64,000 bases of DNA from an uncultured Alphaproteobacteria bacterium (GCA_934230415.1 CAKQEW010000002.1:64783-128782), one strand, 5' to 3'; shown: positions 1-64,000, counted from the first letter of the stretch. Numbers and translations are program-made. The notes: generated by a model from the letters alone, not told the origin.

Positions 1-148
1 CAACCTCGCGCTGGTCAGACTTCTGCCCCCCCAGCAACATTGTTAACAAAATCAATACGACAATAAACGCCGCACCCAAAAACAGCCACTGAACCCGTTT
101 TGGGGTTGCATTGCGCAGGTCTGAAATTTGTTTTTTGATACCACTCAT
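1..148 (-). CDS. virB10: VirB10-like T4SS protein, N-terminal fragment (gene continues beyond the window start)
   Basis: Reverse-strand translation from the ATG at 148-146 gives MSGIKKQISDLRNATPKRVQWLFLGAAFIVVLILLTMLLGGQKSDQ. This is a basic cytoplasmic tail, one TM helix and a GGQK motif, as in VirB10 N-termini. It lies 15 nt downstream of the virB9 stop, in the virB8-9-10 order. Confidence 0.4.
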   Translation of the reverse strand, partial: MSGIKKQISDLRNATPKRVQWLFLGAAFIVVLILLTMLLGGQKSDQREV

Positions 149-10352: not shown

Positions 10353-13300
10353 ATGACCAATATGTTGCAGAAGATTTTCGGACAAATTGAAACCAAGGAA
10401 CAGTTTGACGCCCTGCGCATCACCATCGCGTCCCCAGAAGAAATTCTGTCCTGGTCCCATGGCGAGGTAAAAAAGCCCGAAACTATCAACTATCATTCTT
10501 TGAAACCAGAAGCAGAAGGCTTGTTCTGCCAGCAAATTTTTGGTCCGGTCAAAGATTACGAATGCGCATGCGGAAAATATAAAAGAATCAAATTCCGTGG
10601 CGTTGTTTGCGAACGTTGCGGGGTTGAAGTTGGTTCTTCATCTGTCCGCCGCGAACGCATGGGACACATTAAATTGGCGATGCCTGTGGCGCACACATGG
10701 TTCCTGCGCGAAGGCAAAATTGCCACATTGTTAAACAATCTGCCCCAGAAAAAATTGGAACAGGTTATCTCGTATGATGCATATATCGTTATTGAACCAG
10801 GTTTAACCAACCTGAAACAGTACGATGTCATCAGCGAAGATGAATACCAGAACGCCGTTGAAGAATTCGGTCCAGACGCATTCCGCGTTGGTATCGGTGC
10901 CGAAGGCGTACGCAGCATCATCGCAAACCTGGACATGGGCGATGAACGTACACGTTTGCGCGCAGAATTGGCGGAAACCAAATCAGAAGCCAAACGCAAG
11001 GGGCTGATCAAGCAGTTAAAATTGGTAGAAGCATTTTTGGATTCCAAAACAGACCCAGCGTGGATGTTGCCGGATATTATCCCGGTTATCCCACCAGATA
11101 TGCGTCCATTGGTAACATTGGATGCGGGCCATGTTGCGGCATCTGACCTGAACGATTTGTATCGTCGTGTTATTATCCGTAATAACCGTCTGAAACGTTT
11201 CCAGGAAATGCATGCACCTGAAATTATCGTCCGCAACGAAAAACGTATGTTACAGGAAGCGGTTGATTCTTTGTTTGATAACGGGCACAAGGCACGTCCA
11301 ATGGTTTCCCAGAACCGCCGTCCGCTGAAATCACTGTCTGATTCACTGCGCGGTAAATCTGGTCGTTTCCGTATGAACATGTTGGGTAAACGTGTGGATT
11401 ATTCCGGTCGTTCGGTAATTGTGTCTGGGCCATCCCTGAAATTGCACCAGGTTGGTTTGCCCAAGACAATGGCACTGGAATTGTTTAAACCATTCGTTTA
11501 TGCACGACTGTTGGCGGGTGATTACGCAAATACATTAAAGACCGCGCGTAAAATGGTTGAAAACGGTGAAGACATCGTTTGGGAAATCCTGGAAAAGGTT
11601 ATTTACCAGCATCCTGTTCTGTTGAACCGTGCGCCATCATTGCACCGTCTGTCGTTGCTGGCATTTGAACCAGTATTAATTGAAGGCAAGGCAATCCGTC
11701 TGCACCCATTGGTTTGCAAGGGATTCAATGCTGACTTTGATGGTGACCAGATGTCTGTACACGTTCCAATTTCACTGGAAGCACAATTGGAAGCGCGCAC
11801 ATTGATGCTGTCGTCTAATAACGTTTTGTCACCTGCAAATGGTGAACCAATGATTGTTCCGGCCCAGGACATGGTGTTGGGTGTATATTATATCTCGCTG
11901 ATTGATGGCGAACACACCGAAAAATCACCACGTTTTGCCAATATGGACGAAGTGAAAATGGCGTTGGAAAATCATTCCATCACATTGCACACACCAATCG
12001 TTGCACGTATTAATGGCAAGATTTACAAAACAACCGCCGGTCGTATGATTTTGGGCGAATTGTTGCCGAAATCTGACAAAATGCCGTTTGACCTGGTGAA
12101 CAAGGTTATGCCGGTTAAAGAAATCAAGGCACTGTTGGCGACAACGTATGAACGTTGCGGCGACAAGGCAATGATTATGTTGGCAGATAACCTGAAAAAC
12201 ACCGGTTTTGAACAGGCAGCGCGCAGTGGTATTTCCATTGGGTTTGATGATATTATCATCCCAGAAGAAAAGAAAACCATGATTGCGGATGCTGAAAAAG
12301 CGGCCGAAGAAATTGAAACACAGTATCAGAACGGTTTGCTGTCTGGTGGTGAACGTCACAACAAACTGATTGACCTGTGGCAGAAAACAACCGATAAATT
12401 GGGTGATTTGGCATACGCCGCATTGGGCAAAACCAGTGGTGAAAACTGGAACTCTGTTCTGATGATGGCTCTGTCTGGGGCGCGTGGTTCCAAACGTCAG
12501 ATTCAGCAGTTGGCCGGTATGCGTGGTATGATGCAGAAGCCAGACGGTTCCATTATTGAAGTTCCAATTATTTCCAACTTTAAGGAAGGTCTGACCATGT
12601 CTGAATACTTTACGTCCACACACGGTGCGCGTAAGGGTATGTCGGATACCGCGTTGAAAACCGCGTCTGCTGGTTACCTGACCCGTCGTTTGGTTGAATT
12701 GTCCCAAAATACAGTTATTACCGAACACGATTGCGGCACCACAGAATACATCACAGCGAAACCTGTGTACCAGGGTTCAACCCTGTCGGTTGCGCTGGGC
12801 GATGTTGTATTGGGTCGTACCGCGGCACATGATATCGTTCACCCGATTACCAAGGAAGTTATCGTTCCGGCCGGTGAACTGATTACCAAGACCGCTGCAA
12901 AACAGATTAATGAATCAGGTCTGCCATCTGTTGATGTGCGCAGTGTTTTGACATGCAGCAGTGATGGTTTGTGCGCAAAATGCTATGGTATGGATTTGTC
13001 GCGTAATGCGCTGGTTCATGTTGGCGAAGCGGTCGGTGTTATCGCTGGCCAGTCCATTGGTGAACCTGGTACCCAGTTGACCCTGCGTACGTTCCACATT
13101 GGTGGTGTTGCCGAAGGTAGTGCAGAAAACCATTTCATAGAGGTTCCAGTTGCAGGTACAATTAAACTGATTGGTGCCAACACGATTAAGAATACAGCGG
13201 GTCGCGTTGTGGTATTGTCGCGTAATGCCGAGGTTGCAGTTCTGGATGCCAAGGGCGAAACCCTGTTCTCGTGCGCGTTGCCATATGCATCTATGCTGAT

Positions 13301-29857: not shown

Positions 29858-30683
29858 GCGTGTTGCGCGTATAAACATCTTTAACGTTATATTTGGCACA
29901 CTGAAATTCATCGCGTTCTGGATTGGCGTTGTGATTCAGGTGCCGATTATATTCATACTGCCACGTGGGCGCGTTTCTGTGTGGTATATGCGTGTGTTTA
30001 TGCGAATCTTGCTGTTGTTGGCGGGGATACGTGTACGCGTGCATGGCACGCTGTCATCGCATCGGCCATTGTTGGTGGTTTCCAATCACATGTCACTGTT
30101 TGAAATTGCAACGTTCCCGGTCGCATTCGGGGGCAGCTTTGTTGCCAAGGCAGACGTGCGCAAATGGCCATTGGTCGGATGGGTTTCTGAAAAATTCGGC
30201 GTTGTGTTTATTGACCGCCGCCCGTCCCATGCGTTGGAGGCCCTGCGTGCCGTCCAGGAACGCGTGAAAAATGTACAATACCCAATGTTCTTGTTCCCCG
30301 AAGGAACAACCACAAACGGCGCATATGTAAAGCCGTTTAAGAGCACACTATTTAATTTTGTTGAAAATTCAGACGTTGCGGTGCAACCTATGGCGGTGCA
30401 TTATCGTTTTCGTGATGGCACACCGATTTCTGATGATGACCTGGCAAATCACTATGCGTATTTTGATAATAAAAAGCAGGACATAGGCCCATATTGTACC
30501 CGTGAACGCAGTGCATTTATGCAGGTGTTTCATATAATGATTATCGGTGGATTTCGTGTTGATATCACGGTAATGCCACCACCCGCCACCGCGGGCATGG
30601 ACAGAAAACAAATCGCAGATGTACTGCACACAATGGTGGCTGACAAATATATGGAATTAAAAGACAAGAAGACAGAAAAATGA
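29841..30683 (+). CDS. olsA: Lyso-ornithine lipid O-acyltransferase OlsA (PlsC family)
   Basis: NHxSxxE/D block (VSNHMSLFEI) and FPEGTT block. The start is chosen at the ATG at 29841 (MPRQNKRV...). The longer ORF from 29763 overlaps olsB. Confidence 0.65.
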   Translation: MPRQNKRVARINIFNVIFGTLKFIAFWIGVVIQVPIIFILPRGRVSVWYMRVFMRILLLLAGIRVRVHGTLSSHRPLLVVSNHMSLFEIATFPVAFGGSFVAKADVRKWPLVGWVSEKFGVVFIDRRPSHALEALRAVQERVKNVQYPMFLFPEGTTTNGAYVKPFKSTLFNFVENSDVAVQPMAVHYRFRDGTPISDDDLANHYAYFDNKKQDIGPYCTRERSAFMQVFHIMIIGGFRVDITVMPPPATAGMDRKQIADVLHTMVADKYMELKDKKTEK

Positions 30684-31960
30684 AAATTGAAAATTTATGT
30701 GTAAAACGTTTATATGGTGATGTTGCGGGCGCAACAACCCCGGGACACAAAATGGCGGTCAAGGCCGGATATATATACCAGACGTTCCAGGGCGGGTACA
30801 CGCTGTCCCCATTGGGATGGCGCGTTGTTCGCAATATTGAAAACATTATTCGTGATGAAATGAACGCCACCGATGGCCAGGAAATCCTGATGCCGGTGGT
30901 CAGTAGCGCGGAAATCTGGAAACAATCCGGGCGTTATGATACGGTTGACGTACTGGCAAAATTCAAGGGTCGTGGTGGTGCGGATTATGTGCTGAACCCG
31001 ACACACGAAGAAGTGGTGGTGGACTTTGTTAAATCTGTACTGACGACATATCGCCAATTGCCATTTATGGTGTACCAGATTCAGACAAAGTTCCGTGATG
31101 AATTGCGCGTGCGTGCGGGCCTGATTCGCACCCGTGAATTTATTATGAAGGACGCGTATTCGTTCCATGAAACCCAGGCGGATTTAGAGGCATACTATGC
31201 CCGTCAACTGGCGGCGTACAAGCGGATTTTTGCGCGTTGTGGCCTGCGTAATGTTGTAGATGTGTTGTCATCAACCGGCGACATGGGTGGCAATATCGCG
31301 CACGAATTCCAACTGATAAACGAAATGGGCGAAGATACCATTTACATGTGCGACTGTGGATTTCGCGCAAACAAGGAAATGGTTGATGAAAACAATGAAA
31401 ATTGCCCACACTGTGGCAAACCAATGCACAAGGTCCGCGGGGTAGAGGTTGGCAATATCTTTCAACTGGGAACAAAATATTCTGCGTCTATGAACCTGAC
31501 GTACACGGCGGCCGATGGCACGGAAAAGCATCCGATTATGGGTTGCTATGGCATCGGCGTTGGGCGCACCCTGGCGGCAATTTTGGAAGAAAGTGCGGAT
31601 GAATACGGCCCACGTTGGAACATGGCCACCGCCCCATTCGCAGCAGAGGTTATCGCACTGCCGGACAAAGAAGGTCGCACGGTGCCACTGGCGGAAAAAA
31701 TCTATAATGATTTGCGTGCTGCGGGTGTGGACACGCTGTTGGATACGCGTGATGCGCGCGCGGGTGAAAAGTTTGCGGATGCCGACCTGGTCGCGGCGCC
31801 AATTCGCCTGATTGTATCGCAAAAGAACCTGGCCAATAATGTGTTAGAGGTGAAATATCGTGTAAACGATATGGATACGTCATCTATGCCGGGGACAATT
31901 GGTGTTGATACGTATGTTGCGGATGTTCAGCATGCAATCCAGAAATTGTCTGGCAAATAA
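30680..31960 (+). CDS. proS: Prolyl-tRNA synthetase, short form lacking the editing insertion
   Basis: 426 aa with class II motifs. N-terminus alignable to ProRS (AGYIYQ...PLGWRVVRNIENIIRDEMNA). Confidence 0.9.
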   Translation: MKIENLCVKRLYGDVAGATTPGHKMAVKAGYIYQTFQGGYTLSPLGWRVVRNIENIIRDEMNATDGQEILMPVVSSAEIWKQSGRYDTVDVLAKFKGRGGADYVLNPTHEEVVVDFVKSVLTTYRQLPFMVYQIQTKFRDELRVRAGLIRTREFIMKDAYSFHETQADLEAYYARQLAAYKRIFARCGLRNVVDVLSSTGDMGGNIAHEFQLINEMGEDTIYMCDCGFRANKEMVDENNENCPHCGKPMHKVRGVEVGNIFQLGTKYSASMNLTYTAADGTEKHPIMGCYGIGVGRTLAAILEESADEYGPRWNMATAPFAAEVIALPDKEGRTVPLAEKIYNDLRAAGVDTLLDTRDARAGEKFADADLVAAPIRLIVSQKNLANNVLEVKYRVNDMDTSSMPGTIGVDTYVADVQHAIQKLSGK

Positions 31961-32014: not shown

Positions 32015-32464
32015 GCATACAAATAACTTGCAAAATACAATGTGAAAATGTATCATAGCAGATGAATCTTATGGGAATAAGGTTCGGGATCTTCAAAAAT
32101 CCTGATGTACCGCGGTGCAAAGAAAATGTTGCGCCGTAATCCGCACAATAATGCGGCGCGATTGCGCCATTTATTGTGTTCAGACCCCGTCAATTTGGTC
32201 GGGGGGCCGCCAGCGTATACCACAGGGGGAACCCAAAGACTGGCGGGGTCATTTGGTACAATGATTTTTGAACCTCCCGGCCACCATTTTATTGGTGGTT
32301 TTCTTTTTCCTGTAATTTTCATTTGTTGTATGGGCGGAATCGGGTTATCGCAAGAAATCCGAAAACTGTAAGATTTATATGATCTGTCGGTTGTTTGAAC
32401 AATTCCGCCCACCCATAGGAAAAAGGTGCATTATGCCAAAACGTTTTGTTTTTGCGCAACTTTA

Positions 32465-32488: not shown

Positions 32489-32601
32489 GGGACGTTTGCG
32501 TGACTGCATAAATGCGGTTCTGGTGCGTACTTTTTCAAATTTTGAATTTGTCCCATTGTGTAAAACAAATTGGAAATAAAAATAAGTCAGGAGAAAAAAG
32601 T

Positions 32602-34125
32602 ATGAAAATTATTATCCAAGCGGGTGGTATGGGTACCAGAATGCAGGCGTTAACGCATGTAAAGCCAAAGGTTTTGGTCACGGCGAAATATATGCCGATT
32701 ATTTTCCATATGTTCAAGAAGTATCCAAAGGATGAATTTATCATTATTGGCGACTATAAATTTGACGTGTTGGACCGTTATTTGGCCACGTTTGCCAAGG
32801 ATGTTAATTACATTTTGTTAAAGGCCGATAAAAAGGGTAATGCCGCCGGCATCAAGGAAGCCGTTGCGTGTGTTCCTGATGGCGAACCGTTTATGATTGT
32901 GTGGTCTGACATCATTTTATCCGAAGCGTTCAATGTTAATGAAATTCCGCATGGGTGCCAGGTCGGCGTTGTTGATTTCCCATGTTCATGGAGTATCAAG
33001 GACAATAAACTGGTTCATGAAGCGATACCTGGAATGGGCGTTGGTGGCCTGTATGTATTTGATGACAAATCGTGGTTTGATGATTTCCCAGGCGAAGGTT
33101 CGTTTACAACGTGGTTGGCGAACAAGGATATTCCATTGCACCCAATATCATTGATGGGCAGTATTGATGTCGGCACATTGGAGGCATACAAACGCCTGTC
33201 GTCAACGGCAAATCGTTGTCGGCCATATAATAAGATTGAATTTATTGATGGGCGTGTTGTAAAAACAGGCCTGACCCCGGATGCGGTTAAATTGATTCAG
33301 CGTGAAATTGAATGGTATGAAAAAATCAGCAGCTATGGTTTCCATGCCATCCCAAAGATTTATTCAACTAATCCATTAACAATGGAAATTATCAAGGGAA
33401 AAAATATTTTCTTGGCCGATTTGGATAAAGACGGAAAACGCGAAACAATCCATAAAATTGTTGACGCATTGGCAACAATGCATGGATATGAAACGGCGCC
33501 GGCGTCTGCGTGGGATTTGTATACGGAATATTTTAAAAAGACCATACATCGCCTGGAATCAATCATGTTTGCGATTCCGTTCGCGTTTGATGAAACAATC
33601 AACATCAATGGTACAACGTGCAAAAACGTGCTGTATCATCCGCATTTGTTGCGTGCGGCGGTATTGGACACACTGATGCATACGCATTACGGGCCAATTC
33701 ATGGCGATTGCCAATTAACAAACACGATGATTGATGAATCTGGGCGTGTGTTCTTTATTGATGCACGTGGTTATTTCGGCAAGAGCAAAATCTTGGGCGA
33801 TGTCAGATACGACTGGGCCAAGGTGTACTATGCAATTTCCGGTAATTTTGATCAATTTAACGTCAAGAATTTTGACTTTGATGTGCAACCAGACGGTGTG
33901 AATTTCCAGATTCACAGTGGTGGTTGGGAAGATTTGACAGAATATTTCCTGGATATGATTCCGCGCAGCGAGGCAAATATCAAAGAAATTAAACTGATTC
34001 ATGCGATTATATGGTTGTCGCTGGCATCGCACGCATGGGAAGATTTTGATTCCATGTGTATTGCGTTCTATAACGGAACATTGTTGTTTAACCAGTGGTT
34101 GGCGGAGTATGGCAATGACAAATAA
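32602..34125 (+). CDS. Bifunctional sugar/alcohol-phosphate nucleotidyltransferase (LicC/MurU-like) plus aminoglycoside-phosphotransferase-fold kinase (LicA/AmgK-like)
   Basis: Start at the ATG at 32602 after AGGAG. The N-terminal IIQAGGMGTRM is the NTP-transferase G-loop. The C-terminal HGDCQLTNTMIDESGRVFFIDARG is the APH/choline-kinase Brenner and DFG-like motifs. Confidence 0.6.
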   Translation: MKIIIQAGGMGTRMQALTHVKPKVLVTAKYMPIIFHMFKKYPKDEFIIIGDYKFDVLDRYLATFAKDVNYILLKADKKGNAAGIKEAVACVPDGEPFMIVWSDIILSEAFNVNEIPHGCQVGVVDFPCSWSIKDNKLVHEAIPGMGVGGLYVFDDKSWFDDFPGEGSFTTWLANKDIPLHPISLMGSIDVGTLEAYKRLSSTANRCRPYNKIEFIDGRVVKTGLTPDAVKLIQREIEWYEKISSYGFHAIPKIYSTNPLTMEIIKGKNIFLADLDKDGKRETIHKIVDALATMHGYETAPASAWDLYTEYFKKTIHRLESIMFAIPFAFDETININGTTCKNVLYHPHLLRAAVLDTLMHTHYGPIHGDCQLTNTMIDESGRVFFIDARGYFGKSKILGDVRYDWAKVYYAISGNFDQFNVKNFDFDVQPDGVNFQIHSGGWEDLTEYFLDMIPRSEANIKEIKLIHAIIWLSLASHAWEDFDSMCIAFYNGTLLFNQWLAEYGNDK

Positions 34126-34510
34126 AGAATTACGCATTTCGCCACTGAACCATACATGGATTCTGGATTTTGATGGGACATTGGTTCGTCATAATGGGTA
34201 CAAGGATGGCATTACAAATACGGATGCCTGGTTGCCGGGGGCATTGGATTTCTTGAAATCAATACCGGCGGGGGATTATGTACTGATATTGACCGCCCGC
34301 GAAGATGAACCAGACGTTCGCCGCCGCACCATTGATTTTATTCGCGCGGCCGGTGTCCGTTTTGATGATATTAAATTCGGCATGCCGATGGGTGAACGCA
34401 TTTTGATAAATGACAACAAACCATCTGGCCTGGTGTGTTCGCATGCGATTACGCCCGATCGCAACCAGGGGCTGGAAACATTTAACGTAATCATTGATAA
34501 CGATTTATAA
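34109..34510 (+). CDS. HAD-family phosphatase (small)
   Basis: LDFDGTLV motif at the N-terminus. The internal start MAMTNKEL is preferred. It overlaps the upstream gene by 17 nt. Confidence 0.5.
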   Translation: MAMTNKELRISPLNHTWILDFDGTLVRHNGYKDGITNTDAWLPGALDFLKSIPAGDYVLILTAREDEPDVRRRTIDFIRAAGVRFDDIKFGMPMGERILINDNKPSGLVCSHAITPDRNQGLETFNVIIDNDL

Positions 34511-34528
34511 AAACACAGGGGGAAACAC

Positions 34529-35422
34529 ATGCAAGTCTTGAAACCAATCGTTCACGAAACAATATGGGGGGGAAATAAATTAACCCCGTATTCTGGTACC
34601 GATTGTCAGAAAATCGGTCATCTGTATTCTGCAATTGATACAGAACAATTTTGTAATGAAATTATCACAGGTCCGGACAGTGGTAAAAATCTGCACCAAT
34701 GGTTTATGGAAAATCGCGCGAAATATGGCTTGGAAAAATACGATGAATTGCCAATCTTAATGGCCCTGGTGGAAGCAGACGATAACTTGTCTATTCAGGT
34801 TCACCCAGACGACAAAATGGCCCAAGAACTGGAACACAAATCGTTCGGCAAAAACGAATCTTTCTATACATTGGTTGCACCAACATGTGGCAAAATGTAT
34901 AACGGGTGCAGGGCGGCGTCTGTGGCAGAAATGCAACAAAAGATTGCCGCAGGCAAAATTGATGAAACATTGGATATGATGCCGTGCGCCGCCGGTGATT
35001 ACACATACATTGTTGGTGGCACATTGCACGCGGCGACCGCTGGGTCATTGCACTTTGAAATTGAAGAAAACAGTGAATACACATATCGCTTCTATGATTT
35101 TGATCGCGTTGATAAAAACGGCAACAAACGCCCATTGCAGTTGGACAAGGCGTTGGCGTGCCTGGACGTGTCAAAGAAATCTGTCGCCCGCAAATACGGC
35201 CCAGAACCAATTGTGGAACGTATGTATTCAACCCAATTAATCACCAACAGTGATACATTTACCAATACCGGTGATATGTTCGCGTTTGCGGTTATGCTGC
35301 GTGGGGATAAAACAATTGACGGTGCACACGTCATGCCGGGAACGGCGATTTTGATGGAACCTGGCGAAACGCTGGATACAACAAATGCCGAATTTATAAT
35401 CGCAAAACCACGCCGGGGATAA
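34529..35422 (+). CDS. Type I phosphomannose-isomerase-like cupin
   Basis: WGG (ETIWGGNKL), LSIQVHPDD and ESFYTL blocks, typical of class I PMI. Confidence 0.5.
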   Translation: MQVLKPIVHETIWGGNKLTPYSGTDCQKIGHLYSAIDTEQFCNEIITGPDSGKNLHQWFMENRAKYGLEKYDELPILMALVEADDNLSIQVHPDDKMAQELEHKSFGKNESFYTLVAPTCGKMYNGCRAASVAEMQQKIAAGKIDETLDMMPCAAGDYTYIVGGTLHAATAGSLHFEIEENSEYTYRFYDFDRVDKNGNKRPLQLDKALACLDVSKKSVARKYGPEPIVERMYSTQLITNSDTFTNTGDMFAFAVMLRGDKTIDGAHVMPGTAILMEPGETLDTTNAEFIIAKPRRG

Positions 35423-35423
35423 T

Positions 35424-36086
35424 TTGATGTCTGAAATAAAATTATGTCCGTCATTAATGTGTGCAGATTTCGGCAATTTCGCGACCGAGGTTTCCGCCAT
35501 GGATGCCGCCGGTGTGTCTGAATATCATATGGATATTATGGACGGTGAATTTGTGCCGAACTTTGCACTGTCATGGGCGGATTTTGCAGCGATACGTAAA
35601 ATGACCAAAACACCGATGGATGTACACCTGATGGTGAAAAATCCGGGTGTTCATTTGCCATATGCATTGCGATATGGTGCGGATATTATTTATGTCCATT
35701 GGGAATCCGGCAACGCCGAAACGTATTTGCGTGAAATTCGCAAAAATGGTCGCCTGGCAGGATTGGCGATTAACCCCAGTACCACAGTTGACGATGTGCG
35801 TGGGGTTCTGCCACTGGTGGACACATTGATGGTTATGCGTGTCAATCCGGGCTTTGCCGGCCAGACGGCGATTCCTGCGGTTGATGATAAAATCACAGAA
35901 TTGGTATCCATGCCGAACCGTACATTTGGTATAAAACTGGATGGCTGTGTTGGCCCCGATGTGATAACGCATTGGTCGTCGCGTGGTGTTGATTCATTTG
36001 TATGCGGTACCGCATGTGGTATGTTTGGCGCGAAACGCCGCAACCGCACATACCAGGAAATTGTTAACGAATTAAGACAAAGGTAA
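35424..36086 (+). CDS. Ribulose-phosphate 3-epimerase family protein (pentose/hexulose-phosphate epimerase)
   Basis: SLMCADF, HMDIMDGEFVPN, DVHLMV and VNPGFAGQ motifs. Confidence 0.7.
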   Translation: MMSEIKLCPSLMCADFGNFATEVSAMDAAGVSEYHMDIMDGEFVPNFALSWADFAAIRKMTKTPMDVHLMVKNPGVHLPYALRYGADIIYVHWESGNAETYLREIRKNGRLAGLAINPSTTVDDVRGVLPLVDTLMVMRVNPGFAGQTAIPAVDDKITELVSMPNRTFGIKLDGCVGPDVITHWSSRGVDSFVCGTACGMFGAKRRNRTYQEIVNELRQR

Positions 36087-36094
36087 TATACGTT

Positions 36095-37229
36095 ATGCGA
36101 AATTTTCTTGTGCGTTTTATCTGTTGTTTCGTCCCCAGCCGCCGTCCCAGACATGCCATACGACAGCATATGACATTGGTGCGTGGTATCACCCCATATA
36201 GGCCAAAACGGGACACTTTTGTAATTTTTTCATATCCACGTGCAATTCACCATCCAACAACAACGGATGTTTGTGTAAATATGGGCGATTATGTCCAGTC
36301 TGTGGCCACGAAATCATTATTGAATCAGTTGTTTCATACGGCAAAATTCCAGACCTTGGATCGTGATAATTTAATCGGTTTTCAGCCGTGTGAACGGGTA
36401 TCGTACATTACTGTGTACCAGGGATTTTTCCCGGCTGATATTGGATGGACACCGACACAGTTTATATTCCCTGTTTTTGTGGGCTTTCATCTGGGGGGGG
36501 GGAATGGAGTATAATCAACAAGATAACGGCAGTGAAATCGTGTTTCAGCGTTTTTGTGCCGCGAATCCAGACTATTTCAATCACAGGTCGGTCGGATGTC
36601 GCGATTTACGAACAACTGGATTTTGCAAAAAGTTGGGATTGAATGCGTATTTTTCCAGATGTTTAACACTGACATTGCCATTACGTAAAACCGGCCCCAG
36701 ACAAACCCAGGTTTTTATATCAGTATTCCCGCAAATTTATGATATTGTGGTGCAGCAGTGTCGTGAACACGGCATTGTTAATTTTGAAACACACAGTGCA
36801 GTAGTCAGCCTGGAAAAATATCGGACAGATGATTATAAATCCGTGGCCCAACACGATTTTATGCCTGATTGCGAACAATATCTGGCGACATTTCGGGACA
36901 ATGCCCGATTGGTAATAACAGACAGAATCCATGTTGCGGCACCGTGTATTGCAATGGGCATACCGGTAATTGTTATTAAACGTGCCGAAAACGACCCCAG
37001 ATATGATATCTTTAATGGGATTATTAAATGCTATTCAGAACAGGAATTAAGAAGTGGAAAAATAGATTTCAATGTGTCTGCGGTTGATATTGAACCATTA
37101 AAAGCCTTGATGCGTGAAAATCTGAAATTGACAATAATGGGCGAGGTATACGGTGAACATGTATCTAAATCACGTCTGCGCCATATCAGAAATCAAATCG
37201 CCAATTTCACAGTGACAGAGGAGGAGTAA
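36095..37229 (+). pseudogene. Polysaccharide pyruvyl-transferase-like gene interrupted by a frameshift at a G10 tract (likely phase-variable, currently OFF)
   Basis: The ORFs 36095..36514 (…NMGDYVQSVA…HLGGGNGV*) and 36390..37229 (…GGGMEYNQQ…DRIHVAAPCIAMGIPVIVIK…) are in different frames and meet exactly at the G10 run. Nine Gs would fuse them into one protein of about 375 aa with the family's N-terminal NxGD and C-terminal R-H…G-P-I-I motifs. Confidence 0.45.
36493..36502 (+). repeat. Homopolymeric G10 tract inside the coding sequence
   Basis: Read directly: catctGGGGGGGGGGaatgg. Confidence 0.95.
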
Positions 37230-59687: not shown

Positions 59688-59712
59688 CAACGCCCCATTT
59701 GGGGCGTTGTAA
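59688..59712. terminator. Bidirectional terminator (CAACGCCCCATTTGGGGCGTTG) between terL and the convergent cassette
   Basis: 9-bp GC stem. Confidence 0.65.
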
Positions 59713-59715
59713 ATA

Positions 59716-60138
59716 TCAATATTCTTTCCGTTCAACGATACAATCCCTTTCCCATGAAAAACATTCTTGTTTTTGAATATCTTTTTGGGCGCAATCCCCA
59801 TAATACACAGGAACGGTTCTTTGGGCACTTGTCGCCGTTGTAAATGAGAATGATTTACGTGTATTCTCCAAAATTCCAGACCATACATAGTATTGGCCAT
59901 CAACCCATTCATTCTCGTATTTACAATTCTCCAGAATTAATTTAACACTGTATACAACACCCCATTTTTCTCCTTGTGGTCCCAGATAGCCAACATTCGC
60001 TAATACAACTTTTTTTGTGTCTGACTGGTCAAGCACCTGATGAACATAAGCCCAATGTTTGACCTCTACATCTCTGGTTCCTGTGGTACAAGAGGTTAAG
60101 CTCAATAATCCTAATATAAAAAATGATACTTTTTTCAT
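59716..60138 (-). CDS. Small lipoprotein (hypothetical)
   Basis: Lipobox (LLSLTSCTT). 140 aa. Last gene of the minus-strand cassette. Confidence 0.4.
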   Translation of the reverse strand: MKKVSFFILGLLSLTSCTTGTRDVEVKHWAYVHQVLDQSDTKKVVLANVGYLGPQGEKWGVVYSVKLILENCKYENEWVDGQYYVWSGILENTRKSFSFTTATSAQRTVPVYYGDCAQKDIQKQECFSWERDCIVERKEY

Positions 60139-60142
60139 TTTG

Positions 60143-60826
60143 CTACTCCTTTGGTGGTATTTTGACTAATAAAAATTTGAACAGGCCGTTTTGTGCAGTC
60201 ATCTCATAGAAATCCTGCCAAGTAAATTCATAGTTGTTCCTGATATCCAAATTTGGACGCGTTTTTAGCAATTTTTCTGGATTTGTGCAGTTGGCTAAAT
60301 TCCAGTTATATTCCCCTTTGTATTTGGCTCCGGGGCTTATGCGAAATGCATATGCCTGAGTTTTTATATTGCATTGACCGTTCCAATAATATTTATCGTT
60401 GGCAATGCATATAAAAATACCACTGTGGGCAAAGCCAGAATCAACCAATCTCTCTATGCGCGATATGTCTTTCCAACAGTCATAACAACCTTCGTCTTCT
60501 GCCCCTTGGGATTTTAATATATCTCTGATCGGAATACCGGTGTCTTCATATAATGTGTCTGAGTCTATTTGGTCGGTCTTGTATTTTAATTCAATAGGGA
60601 ACCTTTTGCCATCAGCTATAATCAGAATATCGATATAAATCGTTCGCCATTTGTTGTCGTATATGCGCACAGGAAATTCACGGTATATTTTGACGTTCGA
60701 CCAATCTTTAAATGCCTGCATCAATTCCCAGGTAAAAGATGCCTGAAAATCAGCCTCTGACACAAAGAAACGATGTTTTTGTTTCAGGTTTTTAAATGCA
60801 GAAATAATAGATTCTGTAATATTCAC
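60143..60826 (-). CDS. PD-(D/E)xK nuclease-fold protein (hypothetical)
   Basis: GTG start. Motif arrangement E(SEADFQ)...D(IYIDILI)...ExK(PIELKYK) with the spacing of restriction-endonuclease-like nucleases. 227 aa. Confidence 0.35.
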   Translation of the reverse strand: MNITESIISAFKNLKQKHRFFVSEADFQASFTWELMQAFKDWSNVKIYREFPVRIYDNKWRTIYIDILIIADGKRFPIELKYKTDQIDSDTLYEDTGIPIRDILKSQGAEDEGCYDCWKDISRIERLVDSGFAHSGIFICIANDKYYWNGQCNIKTQAYAFRISPGAKYKGEYNWNLANCTNPEKLLKTRPNLDIRNNYEFTWQDFYEMTAQNGLFKFLLVKIPPKE

Positions 60827-60829
60827 ACC

Positions 60830-61090
60830 CGTTTTCCCTTTTTATAAACAAAGACCGTCAACAGAATTGACGGCCGGGGAGTTGGTGTCAGCAAACGAAT
60901 GCTCCGTGCTTTCGGGCAAGCCCTGTTGTATAGCGAACGGCTCCCCGACCACAGTCGGGGGACTTTAACGACAAATTTGTGCCGCGTCTGCGGGCCACCA
61001 CAGCCCCGAACCCAATTCCCATTGGATTCAGTGAGAATTTTACCGTGAGAAATAAAGTAAATCAAGTTGATTTATGAAGATAAAGATTAA
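60830..61090 (-). ncRNA. GC-rich, highly structured non-coding element between the S8 protease gene and the nuclease-fold gene (candidate ncRNA)
   Basis: About 55% GC inside a cassette of about 35% GC. Multiple perfect hairpins (CCGTCAA-CAGAA-TTGACGG, GGGGAG...CTCCCC, CCCGAC-CACA-GTCGGG, CCGC-GTCT-GCGG). The only ORF is an 80-aa TTG-start frame with no RBS. Confidence 0.3.
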
Positions 61091-63562
61091 TTATGCAAGA
61101 ACTTCTAGTATGTTTCTCACTTCTATATTATTTTCAATTGGAGTGTAAATATCTATGTCAACGTCTCCCGCATCAATGCTAACAATAAGACTAAAACGCG
61201 TTCTTGTGTCTTCGGGTCTAATTTTTTTACTATCTCTCCACCACCCACCAACGCTGTAAATAGCAATATTTTTCATATCTGCTAATTCAGAACCATTTGT
61301 TATCAAGAAATCCTGATGTATCGAGCCAGCCGTACGCATTGGCGATTTCTTTCCATAAACCCATCTATCGTCTTTAGTACGCGATGCGTTTTTATGTTCA
61401 GAATCTTCCTCCGCTATATTCGCATTTATCCTATTCATAAACATAGTTTCTGTTTCAGTTGGCATTTGTAAATCAAATCGCAAATTATGTGATTGATATG
61501 CAAATTTTCTACTGTATCCTCGCGAACTTGGATTTGGTGCAACAAAATAAGATAATGTTATTTTGACTTTTATTTTCTTATCTTTTAGTTCATCGCTTTG
61601 AAATAAGTCCGTAGGCCACGGCATAGGAATCATTAAAATTTGGCAAACTTTGTCATTTTTTAACTCATTCTTTTTTACTAATCTTGGTATTATTCCATTT
61701 GCATCTCTCTTGTAGTCGTATACTTGGAACTCTTTTTCGGCGATCAATGTTAATGCGTTGTTTCCGCTATATAGTGCTTGATCTAAATTTGGTACACCGT
61801 AACCGCACATTTTGATAAAATTCGTTAATTGTTCTTTATTCCAATTTTCTGGCAGTCTTGTTGATAACATAGTTTCTGTCCATTCGGCAGAATTAACTAT
61901 TAGTCCTCTAATAGTCTCTGGCCAATATGTTGGATATTTTGCAAATAGATTACCAATAAATTGACCTGCCATACCAGTGGCAGCACTGGTCATATTAAGT
62001 CCACAGAATGAAGGATTGTTTATTGTTGAAGAACAAGTGACCAACTCAAACATATCGCCATCATATACATAGGAGTCTTTATCAATGACTTTATTTCCGC
62101 CTTCAAACACAACTTCTGGTTTTATAGGCCATTGTTTTTCAAATTTTATGGAAGTTCTAGAGTAAGGCGATAAATCGCCTGCTTGTGCATATGGAACAAA
62201 GCCACTGTTAGCACACAGTTTTTGGTCTGCTAAATTTGTATATGCTCCTACCGATAGAGAATTCCAGGACTGAGCAGGATCTTCAACACATGAATTTTTT
62301 TGGTGCTCATCATAGTCTTCTGCTTTGCATAACCCGTCAACGTTTCCAACCGATATAGCAAATAATTTACTATTTTTAAAAACAATATCATCAATTTTTG
62401 CAGACCAGCTGGTTGGAGCCCCAAATTTTTCAGAAATGTTTTCAGCAGATGCCGCCATAACATATGCATTAACAATATTCTCATCGGTATTTGTTTTATT
62501 TACAGATAGTTCTGTAATCGTTCCCCATAACTCCCGATCTGTGCCACTAGAATCGCAAATCTGAACGCTTTCTATCTTGTATGGTATAGTTATACTTTGT
62601 AAAGTTTTTGCCTGTGCTATGTCGCCAAATGCAACCAGGCTCCCCATACTAGTTGTGTGTGCATTTGTGGGACTGTTCGCAAATGTACTTACAGCTTTAA
62701 GGTTTCTGACAATTAATCGATCCAACAGCGGATGTCTGACAATAAGTCCTTCGTCCAATATTGTCATACGCACTCGGTTTGTATCATCTGGATATGTTGT
62801 TTTCCTTTCCAACTCTGCTACTATTTCATCTTGAATTTCCTGAGGTTGACCAACAATAGGAGGATTAATTTTTTTTGCTAAATGTATTTCTGTAACAACA
62901 ACATCGTAATTAGTGACAAATGTATTTAATTCTATTATAGATGCGTTACAAATAAAAACGTATCTGTCTGGAAAATCTATGTATTTCTGATTAAAAACTA
63001 ACCTACAATCATTCGCGACCTGCATAAATTTTTCTAAAGCATTTTCTTGTTTTTTGTTGATCCACAGTTCCCACCAGTGCTTATTATTATCCTCTGGTAA
63101 TAAACGAATATCGTCCATAAACAAATCAGATATTTTTATCTCGTCAGTTATGGAACCAATGCTTCCTACATATGAGAGTGTTTTGCTGCCTGGTACTGAC
63201 TCTGAATATTTTTGTGCGACCTTTTGTAGTTTGTTAAATGCTTTTCCAGATTCAACGGATACGTTAGCAGAAATGACCTTGCCGTCTTTCTCTTTTATGG
63301 AAAGTAACTCCATTCCTGAACCGGGTTGATTCAAATTTTCGAAAAACAAACCAGTTTCTGTATTGCCGTTAAATTTTATCGTATAAATCGTGTTTTCTGG
63401 ATGTCTGCTCTTAATTAATTGTATTTCATCGGACAAGCGCCTGCCATGTGCAAACCGATTTTTTATGTTCGGGATAATCTGGTTCCCGCGTCCTGTGCCT
63501 TTAAATAGACTAGGAACAATATCATCTGTTTTCAAGATTAAATGCTGTTTATTTCGTGGCAT
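61091..63562 (-). CDS. Subtilisin-like serine protease (peptidase S8) with a large N-terminal extension, IetS-like
   Basis: 823 aa. Catalytic Ser block MTSAATGMAG (GTSxAAP-like), a His block (NAHTTSMGS) and an upstream Asp. Five nt downstream of the AAA ATPase gene. Confidence 0.75.
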   Translation of the reverse strand: MPRNKQHLILKTDDIVPSLFKGTGRGNQIIPNIKNRFAHGRRLSDEIQLIKSRHPENTIYTIKFNGNTETGLFFENLNQPGSGMELLSIKEKDGKVISANVSVESGKAFNKLQKVAQKYSESVPGSKTLSYVGSIGSITDEIKISDLFMDDIRLLPEDNNKHWWELWINKKQENALEKFMQVANDCRLVFNQKYIDFPDRYVFICNASIIELNTFVTNYDVVVTEIHLAKKINPPIVGQPQEIQDEIVAELERKTTYPDDTNRVRMTILDEGLIVRHPLLDRLIVRNLKAVSTFANSPTNAHTTSMGSLVAFGDIAQAKTLQSITIPYKIESVQICDSSGTDRELWGTITELSVNKTNTDENIVNAYVMAASAENISEKFGAPTSWSAKIDDIVFKNSKLFAISVGNVDGLCKAEDYDEHQKNSCVEDPAQSWNSLSVGAYTNLADQKLCANSGFVPYAQAGDLSPYSRTSIKFEKQWPIKPEVVFEGGNKVIDKDSYVYDGDMFELVTCSSTINNPSFCGLNMTSAATGMAGQFIGNLFAKYPTYWPETIRGLIVNSAEWTETMLSTRLPENWNKEQLTNFIKMCGYGVPNLDQALYSGNNALTLIAEKEFQVYDYKRDANGIIPRLVKKNELKNDKVCQILMIPMPWPTDLFQSDELKDKKIKVKITLSYFVAPNPSSRGYSRKFAYQSHNLRFDLQMPTETETMFMNRINANIAEEDSEHKNASRTKDDRWVYGKKSPMRTAGSIHQDFLITNGSELADMKNIAIYSVGGWWRDSKKIRPEDTRTRFSLIVSIDAGDVDIDIYTPIENNIEVRNILEVLA

Positions 63563-63567
63563 AAATA

Positions 63568-64000
63568 TTACAAGCTCCGACGCGTTTCAACATCTTTTAA
63601 AAGATTTATAAGAAGAGAGGTGTCCACGATCGTACCGTCCAATATGTTTTGCTTTATTGCATTGTTACAAACTTGAGCGATTTCTGCGTAACTAAGTTTG
63701 TCGGATTCCTTCTCTATTTTTGTCCAGTTAATCCCCGCGACGTATTTTTTTGTTAAATATTTCTTAAAAGCCTCAATTCTTAATTTGTTGTCTGGTAAAT
63801 CATAATGCAGAATGTCGTCAAAACGACGGAATAGGGCTTTATCTAATAATTCTTCATGGTTTGTCGCCGCCAATATCAAGCTATCAGAACGAGAGTTTTC
63901 AATAAATTGCAGAAAAGAATTCAATATGCGACGTATTTCGCCAACATCATTCGTGGCGCCGCGACTGCTGCCAATAGCATCAAATTCGTCAAAGAAATAA
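63568..64000 (-). CDS. Classic-clade AAA+ ATPase, C-terminal part (gene continues beyond the window end), IetA-like
   Basis: In-frame translation to the window edge gives ...YFFDEFDAIGSSRG...ILAATNHEELLDKALFRRFDD... These are Walker B (DEFD), sensor-1 (ATN) and the Arg finger (RRFD). The TTG at 63924 is not the real start. Confidence 0.75.
   Translation of the reverse strand, partial: YFFDEFDAIGSSRGATNDVGEIRRILNSFLQFIENSRSDSLILAATNHEELLDKALFRRFDDILHYDLPDNKLRIEAFKKYLTKKYVAGINWTKIEKESDKLSYAEIAQVCNNAIKQNILDGTIVDTSLLINLLKDVETRRSL

Follow-up and report, generated by a model that had tools for sequence, protein, structure and literature searches.

An uncatalogued structured RNA, apparently a remote relative of sRNA-Xcc1, lies at the head of diverse genes in gut Alphaproteobacteria

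Introduction

The small RNA sRNA-Xcc1 (RF02221) of Xanthomonas is borne on integron cassettes, transposons, plasmids and phages. It was detected on Northern blots as an 88-nt RNA (PMC2996969). The integron cassette most widespread in Xanthomonas carries it ahead of symE (10.1101/2025.06.18.660453), some APSE phages have it ahead of an ORF6N gene (10.1101/2020.03.17.996009), and Xylella has seven copies (PMC12189769). In Bartonella, the nine RNAs Brt1-9 are 194-203 nt long and each terminates just before an HTH gene; they have been proposed to act both in cis, as a riboswitch, and in trans, as a small RNA (PMC5387305).

Here we analyze a gap between two genes in a 64,000-nt stretch of DNA from an uncultured Alphaproteobacteria bacterium (GCA_934230415.1 CAKQEW010000002.1:64783-128782), which we refer to as the window. 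The gap is non-coding, measures 264 nt (60827-61090) and has minus-strand genes on both sides. One is IetS (61091-63562, minus), which is recognized by the Peptidase_S8 and PADLOC IetS models, and the other is a 227-aa ORF that we call p227. The C-terminal part of IetA (from 63568, minus; AAA and PADLOC IetA models) lies beyond IetS. An initial annotation of the gap, made from the sequence, had described a GC-rich, hairpin-dense element embedded in a defence cassette.

Results

Composition and coding potential of the gap

The GC content is 54% at 60830-61030 and 48% over the whole gap, compared to 33-40% in the flanking genes, which bears out the description of a GC-rich patch between AT-rich genes. 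Because the window as a whole has a mean GC of 46% (SD 6%, 200-nt windows), the patch stands out against its AT-rich, horizontally acquired neighbours and not against the genome. When folded as RNA, the minus strand reaches -87.3 kcal/mol (z = -2.87), a value matched by 1 of 200 shuffles, and the plus strand gives z = -2.35. The hairpin density noted at the outset is real as well: several local stems were found, plus an inverted repeat, GGCCGGGGAG/CTCCCCGACC, in which 60872-60881 and 60941-60950 are complementary at 9 of 10 positions. Scans of the element for a tRNA or tmRNA and for tandem or direct repeats found none.

An 80-aa frame with a TTG start (60823-61065, minus) is open in the window, as a small-protein gene would require. 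The same frame contains in-frame stop codons in all 21 other sequence variants, is crossed by length differences of 3, 19-20 and 40 nt between relatives, and has no Pfam or PADLOC match; in addition, the longest open frame among relatives shifts in both strand and phase. Judged by this conservation check, the frame is spurious and the segment non-coding, in line with the earlier claim that there is no credible ORF. The small-protein reading is thereby ruled out by conservation, and we consider it practically out of the question.

Covariation and family

A scan of reference genomes with a p227 alignment gave 39 loci (numbered with an L below), mostly MAGs labelled Candidatus Enterousia or Alphaproteobacteria, and the exact IetS and p227 proteins are present on human-gut metagenome contigs. 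Across the p227 loci the gap sequence is 71-94% identical at the nucleotide level, even where the p227 proteins are only ~45% identical. We aligned 22 distinct copies with MAFFT, using no structural model, and then ran RNAalifold, which gave 51 base pairs, 21 of them compensatory. The covariance model built from this alignment, R1, finds its first copy in the window at 61037-60841 (minus) with 199 bits (E = 1e-60).

A metagenome scan with a 25-base degenerate pattern from the conserved core gave at least 120 stretches from rumen, termite-gut and human-gut samples, and R1 confirmed ~73 of the 80 loci listed. Overall, the relatives amount to at least 100 copies; they come from alphaproteobacterial MAGs, from metagenomes of gut, rumen and termite samples, and from two viral contigs, where R1 scores 208 bits (L050, 5251-5444) and 169 bits (L051, 4872-5111). 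Some contigs carry two copies, which are almost tandem in one case (L084:7727-8285, minus) and lie farther apart in others (L114:2374-4700, minus; L023:4395-4592 and 12169-12400), and this hints at many copies of the RNA per genome.

In 77 metagenome members, among the matches listed, standard pairs fill 96.7% of cells, and compensatory changes are seen at 43 of the 51 pairs. The covariation score reaches 0.49; shuffling the columns lowers it to 0.19, and shifting the partners by 1-3 columns lowers it to 0.10 or less. A caveat is that this alignment was fitted to R1, which favours the structure, although the model-free MAFFT result gives the same picture. The covariation-aware check thus upholds the proposal that the element is a functional structured RNA.

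Frequent G-U pairs on the minus strand, which would be C-A mismatches on the opposite strand, indicate that the pairing works on the minus strand only and favour an RNA over an inverted repeat in DNA. The multiple copies, the inverted copies that flank the IetAS genes and the position at the edge of a variable slot could also be explained by an element that acts as DNA, for instance a site of recombination, a promoter that can invert or a miniature mobile element. In addition to the G-U pairs, what speaks against it is that helix sequences vary while pairing is kept, unlike a DNA site recognized by a protein, that the orientation is fixed relative to the promoter and the downstream gene, and that no target-site duplications or terminal repeats were seen. 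We regard a DNA-level element as very improbable.

Architecture of the RNA

The structured RNA unit covers 61065-60844 on the minus strand and consists, in that order, of a promoter, an RNA of ~190 nt and an intrinsic terminator. A consensus scan identified a sigma-70-type promoter (minus) with TTGATT at 61065-61060, a 17-nt spacer and TAAAAT at 61042-61037, which predicts a transcription start at ~61030. This promoter block is conserved across the aligned homologues, and the pattern TTGnnn-16..18-TAnnnT, ending at model position +1/+2, is found in 70 of the 92 members listed (76%) as opposed to 12% of shuffles. The RNA body, which runs from the predicted start through the U-rich tail (60844-61030, minus), is ~187 nt long.

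The 5' end forms a hairpin, P1 (GAAUCCAAU-GGGA-AUUGGGUUC; 61008-61029, minus), which corresponds to helix 1 and shows changes on both sides in 8 of 8 pairs. A CsrA-type GGA motif in the P1 loop was considered and dropped, as many members have GAGA there. P1 is followed by the 5' strand of a long-range helix, P2, which RNAalifold and covariation both support. This strand (60986-61007, minus) carries GGGG, UGGUG and GCAGAC, and the 3' strand (60896-60876, minus) carries GUUUGC, CACCA and CCCC, so that the paired segments are GGGG/CCCC, UGGUG/CACCA and GCAGAC/GUUUGC. In helices 3 and 4, which belong to P2, all four Watson-Crick pair types occur at nearly every position. The 3' end of the P2 3' strand is overlapped by CUCCCCGGCC (60881-60872, minus).

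P2 closes a junction that carries P3, P4 and P5. The P3 hairpin (60968-60985, minus; helix 5) is a site of variable inserts, and long forms have GNRA-capped hairpins there. The P4 hairpin, CCCCGAC-UGUG-GUCGGGG (60943-60960, minus; helix 6), has its 3' arm inside the invariant GGUCGGGGAG (60950-60941). The P5 domain (60904-60940, minus) comprises CCG..GC, UAUACAACA, a GGG-CUUG-CCC hairpin and GAAAGC..CGG; all pairs of its helices 7 and 8 are compensatory, and it is the part of the RNA most similar to sRNA-Xcc1.

The RNA ends in an intrinsic terminator (60844-60875, minus), identified by a scan, in which the stem-loop GGCCGUCAAU-UCU-GUUGACGGUC (60875-60853) is followed by UUUGUUUAU. Its stem covaries (helix 9), has 8 of 8 pairs in 70 of the 93 members listed, and is followed by a mean of 6.3 T in the next 10 nt. 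The minimum-energy fold of nearly all members is the covariation fold plus the full terminator. From the terminator end it is 8 nt to the ribosome-binding site of p227 (AGGGA, 60839-60835) and 17 nt to its GTG start (60826-60824), which together occupy 60824-60839 on the minus strand. The same arrangement recurs in the family, where the start codon follows the terminator by some 15-25 nt. A same-strand ORF of at least 60 aa starts no more than 60 nt past the model end in 67 of the 76 members listed (88%); the median distance is 15 nt, and it is at most 300 nt in 75 of the 76 members listed with enough flank.

The initial annotation had also pointed to a longer-range GGGGAG/CTCCCC pairing. The complementarity is real, but the covariation-supported fold gives each arm another partner, and the pairing corresponds solely to an alternative that resembles sRNA-Xcc1. 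Considering the covariation together with this layout, we are highly confident that the element is a real structured RNA of ~190 nt, as yet uncatalogued, with its own promoter and terminator, and we consider its structure and layout well established.

Genes downstream and further copies

The first gene behind the leader, p227 (60143-60826, minus, GTG start), is probably a PD-(D/E)xK-type nuclease. Its family is very small, with 28 matches among 5.8 billion proteins. Searches of p227 against Pfam and PADLOC gave no match, and a sequence search of the PDB gave nothing. The invariant residues D66, E79 and K81 form a D..ExK motif, and an AlphaFold (AF2) model of p227 has a pLDDT of 92. Foldseek matches to this model are weak, with none at E < 0.001; ranks 2-4 are PD-(D/E)xK proteins, and the matches include Cas4, Hjc, EcoRV and MunI, whereas the top-ranked match is Tdp2, which has a different fold.

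The second gene of the unit, p140 (59716-60138, minus), encodes a 140-aa protein with a lipoprotein-type signal (LTSC); it has no PADLOC match and co-occurs with p227 in close relatives. The unit is convergent towards phage genes on the plus strand that encode TerL, DUF5681 and a ParB-methylase, and the pair of p227 and the small lipoprotein p140 is conserved at the prophage end beside the terminase. Between the convergent p140 and TerL genes there is a GC-rich hairpin (CAACGCCCCAAATGGGGCGTTG, 59688-59709) that resembles a bidirectional terminator.

In the family at large, the proteins encoded downstream of the RNA are heterogeneous. Many are uncharacterized and have signal peptides or lipoboxes. 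Others are outer-membrane beta-barrels, Flg_new and BspA-type repeat proteins (two of more than 1100 aa), glycosyltransferases, a C-5 DNA methylase, GIY-YIG and NERD nucleases, HTH proteins and p227 itself. In fact, most family members head genes unrelated to defence.

A second, diverged copy of the RNA is located in the chromosomal part of the window (32056-32312, plus; R1 99.7 bits, E = 1e-29). A TTGCAA/TATCAT promoter of its own precedes this copy and a strong terminator closes it; the next long ORF is 200 nt further on. Its neighbours are, on one side, a class II aminoacyl-tRNA-synthetase-like gene (30680-31960) and, downstream, a nucleotide-sugar/polysaccharide cluster (32512-37229). From the varied downstream genes and this second copy, it follows that the RNA is a general device of the lineage for surface-related and horizontally acquired genes.

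A third copy, in inverted orientation (L001:3991-4231, minus; R1 148 bits), lies ~1.4 kb past the window end, at the head of a 795-aa gene in which a motif resembles that of N6-adenine methylases. Between this copy and the one at 61037-60841 are IetA, IetS and a 141-aa gene, such that inverted RNA copies bracket the cargo. These inverted copies could serve as recombination anchors around the IetAS cargo.

Comparison with described RNAs

The element gave no BLAST match in E. coli genomes, phages or plasmids. The Rfam scan that the initial annotation had called for was run against Rfam 15 at E up to 10; no family reached its threshold, and the matches were sub-threshold ones to sRNA-Xcc1, with no riboswitch model among them. 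The sRNA-Xcc1 model (RF02221) scores the window copy at 27 bits (E = 0.15; the gathering threshold is 53) and is the best family for it. In 10 of 20 relatives tested, it is likewise the best family and matches over the full model length with 32.6-45.7 bits.

The likeness to sRNA-Xcc1 is in the 3' half of the RNA, which aligns end to end from GGUCGGGGAG through P5 to CUCCCCGRCC and has in common with it the UAUACAAnA motif, a 3-bp hairpin, the GAA motif and the outer-stem sequences. Both RNAs are also found on mobile DNA, just upstream of a same-strand gene (10.1101/2025.06.18.660453; 10.1101/2020.03.17.996009). There are also differences. The predicted transcript, from promoter to terminator, is ~187 nt rather than 88 nt; it has ~100 extra nucleotides at the 5' end, which supply P1, the P2 5' strands, P3 and the P4 5' arm, and a clear terminator closes it. 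The hosts differ as well, being gut Alphaproteobacteria instead of Xanthomonadaceae.

A further difference is that covariation backs another global fold, in which the arms of the Xcc1 outer stem pair with other partners. For the Xcc1 fold, with a 9-bp outer stem and two hairpins inside it, 93% of cells in our RNA allow the pairing. Covariation is seen at one pair of this fold (A-U 47, G-U 21, G-C 8, unpaired 1), which has fewer mismatches than its counterpart in the default fold. Forcing the outer stem costs a median of 11.6 kcal/mol over the default.

As a reference for the family itself, a genuine Xcc1 on the P. aeruginosa plasmid NZ_CP093017.1 (L177:1498-1580) scores 72.6 bits with the Rfam model and 4.6 bits with R1. 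It is located 37 nt upstream of a same-strand BRO-family gene, and a mer operon adjoins, which supports the view of Xcc1 RNAs as leaders of genes carried by mobile DNA. We conclude from these sequence comparisons that the RNA family is a remote and extended relative of sRNA-Xcc1, and not a member by the Rfam criterion. Since Xcc1 can be integron-borne, an attC-like site was also considered for our element; it was dropped because R'/R'' core motifs are missing and the orientation follows the logic of an RNA.

The nearest functional analogue, by our comparison, is the Brt family of Bartonella. Common to both are the alphaproteobacterial hosts, similar length, multiple copies, high degree of structure and termination immediately upstream of a gene. 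Brt always heads HTH regulators, whereas the RNA here heads diverse genes. On the Brt plasmid loci of pTLV-1 and pBGR3 (L175, L176), R1 scores at most 8 bits with filters off, and the resemblance to Brt is thus one of layout only.

GEMM (c-di-GMP) riboswitches are found ahead of surface and adhesin genes, and phage DNA carries them too. The same is true of the RNA family described here, and it has several copies per genome, as do the c-di-GMP-I/II riboswitches. It further shares with these terminator-type riboswitches the succession of promoter, multi-helix aptamer-like RNA, intrinsic terminator and ribosome-binding site, although no Rfam riboswitch model matches it, even at E = 10. The layout is indeed that of a riboswitch or attenuator: a structured RNA and an intrinsic terminator stand before a same-strand gene with no intervening promoter.

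A further comparison is with HK022 put and Bacillus EAR, which, like our RNA, are cis-acting structured RNAs just past the promoters of phage or polysaccharide operons. In HK022, putL and putR head divergent units. By analogy, the RNA could modify the polymerase so that it ignores the terminators of the operon (processive antitermination), and its promoter-proximal position, the two inverted copies that head divergent units in the prophage, and the copies that head long polysaccharide and giant adhesin genes would suit such a function. Our RNA is larger than put and EAR, which are not known to have a strong terminator of their own directly after them, and it shows no sequence or Rfam similarity to EAR or other known antitermination RNAs. 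Moreover, many of the units that it heads hold just one or two short genes. We therefore judge processive antitermination to be improbable.

The neighbouring defence slot

The element had been assigned to a defence cassette, and this assignment is not supported. IetA and IetS are confined to the near-identical loci L001-L007, and all other RNA-bearing loci are without IetAS. In homologous prophages, the slot just upstream of the RNA is occupied instead by Gabija, PD-Lambda-4-like genes or large uncharacterized genes, with the RNA retained. In several loci, a gene other than p227 comes first after the RNA, and p227 homologues are also found without it (L027, L029-L032, L034, L037-L045). Because the RNA is kept while IetAS is swapped, the RNA belongs to the unit that it heads, and IetAS is one of several inserted cargoes. 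The initial annotation had proposed to look for absence of the element from otherwise conserved cassettes; such a separation is observed with respect to IetAS and not with respect to the downstream gene.

The upstream slot is a variable defence hotspot of serine-recombinase prophages (window 61091-64000; L009, L010, L013, L017, L018, L047). Its contents include a GajA homologue in L018 (E = 2e-157) and PD-Lambda-4-like genes in L013 and L047; in L009, L010 and L017, it holds large genes without a PADLOC match, which are candidates for unknown systems. On its other side, the slot is bounded by a conserved 141-aa ORF (L001:4291-4716, plus), in which a stretch of 51 residues is 43% identical to TerL residues 389-439.

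Location between IetS and a nuclease-like gene, beside a defence hotspot, could still suggest that the RNA is the non-coding partner of a defence system involving IetAS or p227, as a retron msr/msd, a DRT ncRNA or a type III antitoxin. In ToxIN, the order is RNA, terminator, protein gene, and the order in our locus recalls it. A Pfam and PADLOC search of all neighbouring ORFs found no reverse transcriptase near the element, its hits being Peptidase_S8/IetS, AAA/IetA, terminase and methylase. The tandem direct repeats found upstream of the endoribonuclease toxin in ToxIN-type systems are likewise missing, and the downstream gene varies, being PD-(D/E)xK-like here. The absence of IetAS from all other loci that keep the RNA, the presence of the same RNA before lipoproteins, porins, glycosyltransferases and methylases, and the p227 homologues without it count further against such a partnership. 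The suggestion of a retron, DRT or toxin-antitoxin RNA is thus largely refuted already, and we give it hardly any credence; the RNA is not a defence component.

Discussion

We lean, with modest confidence, towards a model in which the leader gates downstream transcription by conditional termination, in the manner of an attenuator or riboswitch, and releases a stable small RNA. The element would form a self-contained head of a transcription unit, with a constitutive-looking sigma-70 promoter, an RNA of ~190 nt and a terminator. Since there is no room for a promoter between the terminator and the gene, we infer from the layout that p227 and p140 are expressed by read-through only. If the downstream gene depends on read-through, then the leader would set its expression by terminating or not. 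Because the minimum-energy fold holds the complete terminator, termination would be the default state: transcription would end and a stable small RNA of ~185 nt would be released. Under some signal, RNA polymerase would instead continue past the terminator into the downstream gene.

We hypothesize that the switch is a re-pairing of four nearly invariant segments. In the default fold, UUCGGGG would pair with CUCCCC, and CCCCGAC with GUCGGGG. In the alternative, GGUCGGGGAG would pair with CUCCCCGRCC over 10 bp to form the Xcc1-like outer stem, and this would sequester GRCC, the base of the terminator (4-nt overlap). If CCCCGAC (60960-60954) were weakened, GGUCGGGG would be freed, and more read-through would be expected. 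The Rfam Xcc1 model has the counterpart of this alternative pairing as its outer stem, and the two segments are complementary at 9-10 of 10 positions in all members among the matches listed. Precisely because these segments are almost invariant, covariation barely tests the alternative fold. As for the signal, the heterogeneous set of downstream genes argues against a metabolite riboswitch, whereas a protein factor, a stress cue or a second messenger would still fit.

A different view of the same architecture is that the element is an independent, trans-acting small-RNA gene, as sRNA-Xcc1 has been described. The RNA would then be its sole relevant product, with other transcripts or proteins as targets, and the downstream gene would be expressed by incidental leak-through. 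Its own promoter and U-tailed terminator are the usual architecture of small RNAs of the Hfq type, the default fold is very stable, and Xcc1 is seen as a discrete RNA on Northern blots (PMC2996969). Some copies fit this view better than others: the chromosomal copy at 32056-32312 and a few more have a strong terminator and are 100-260 nt from the next gene, which makes them more like stand-alone small-RNA genes. The proximity of 88% of copies to a same-strand start codon (at most 60 nt) would be unexpected for free-standing genes, no conserved single-stranded seed is evident, and the variable P2 strands pair with each other and not with the downstream mRNA.

Copy-specific antisense action was considered separately and rejected, since the variable P2 strands pair no better with the 90 nt downstream of their own copy than with non-cognate ones (p = 0.30, 0.40); between themselves, the two P2 strands pair in a strongly cognate-specific way (-17.6 versus -8.3 kcal/mol). 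An independent small-RNA gene is, in our estimate, possible rather than probable. It is also not exclusive of conditional termination, as both functions were proposed for Brt1 (PMC5387305), and the two may coexist in this family.

Returning to conditional termination, a bolder and more tentative extension, which we think less likely than not, is that the family is a new class of two-state sensor RNA, either an orphan riboswitch or a factor-dependent attenuator. Such a class would be spread genome-wide in uncultured gut Alphaproteobacteria and copied by prophages, with sRNA-Xcc1 as its minimal core. One signal, for instance a second messenger or a cue of envelope or phage stress, would then co-activate surface-protein and polysaccharide genes together with nuclease and methylase genes of prophages.

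The IetAS genes upstream of the RNA are an unrelated cargo insertion, and this carries a caution for the annotation of defence islands: a structured RNA beside a defence system need not belong to that system. Here, the RNA marks the fixed border of a prophage slot that exchanges defence cargo, namely IetAS, Gabija and PD-Lambda-4.

Taken together, these observations add a large and strongly supported structured RNA family, with at least 100 copies and captured by no Rfam model, whose hosts are a poorly known, uncultured gut lineage. They also suggest a wider set of leader RNAs on mobile DNA, one that includes sRNA-Xcc1, until now regarded as a virulence small RNA of Xanthomonas. If the leader does sense a signal, the family would define a regulon that links the cell surface with the accessory genes of prophages.
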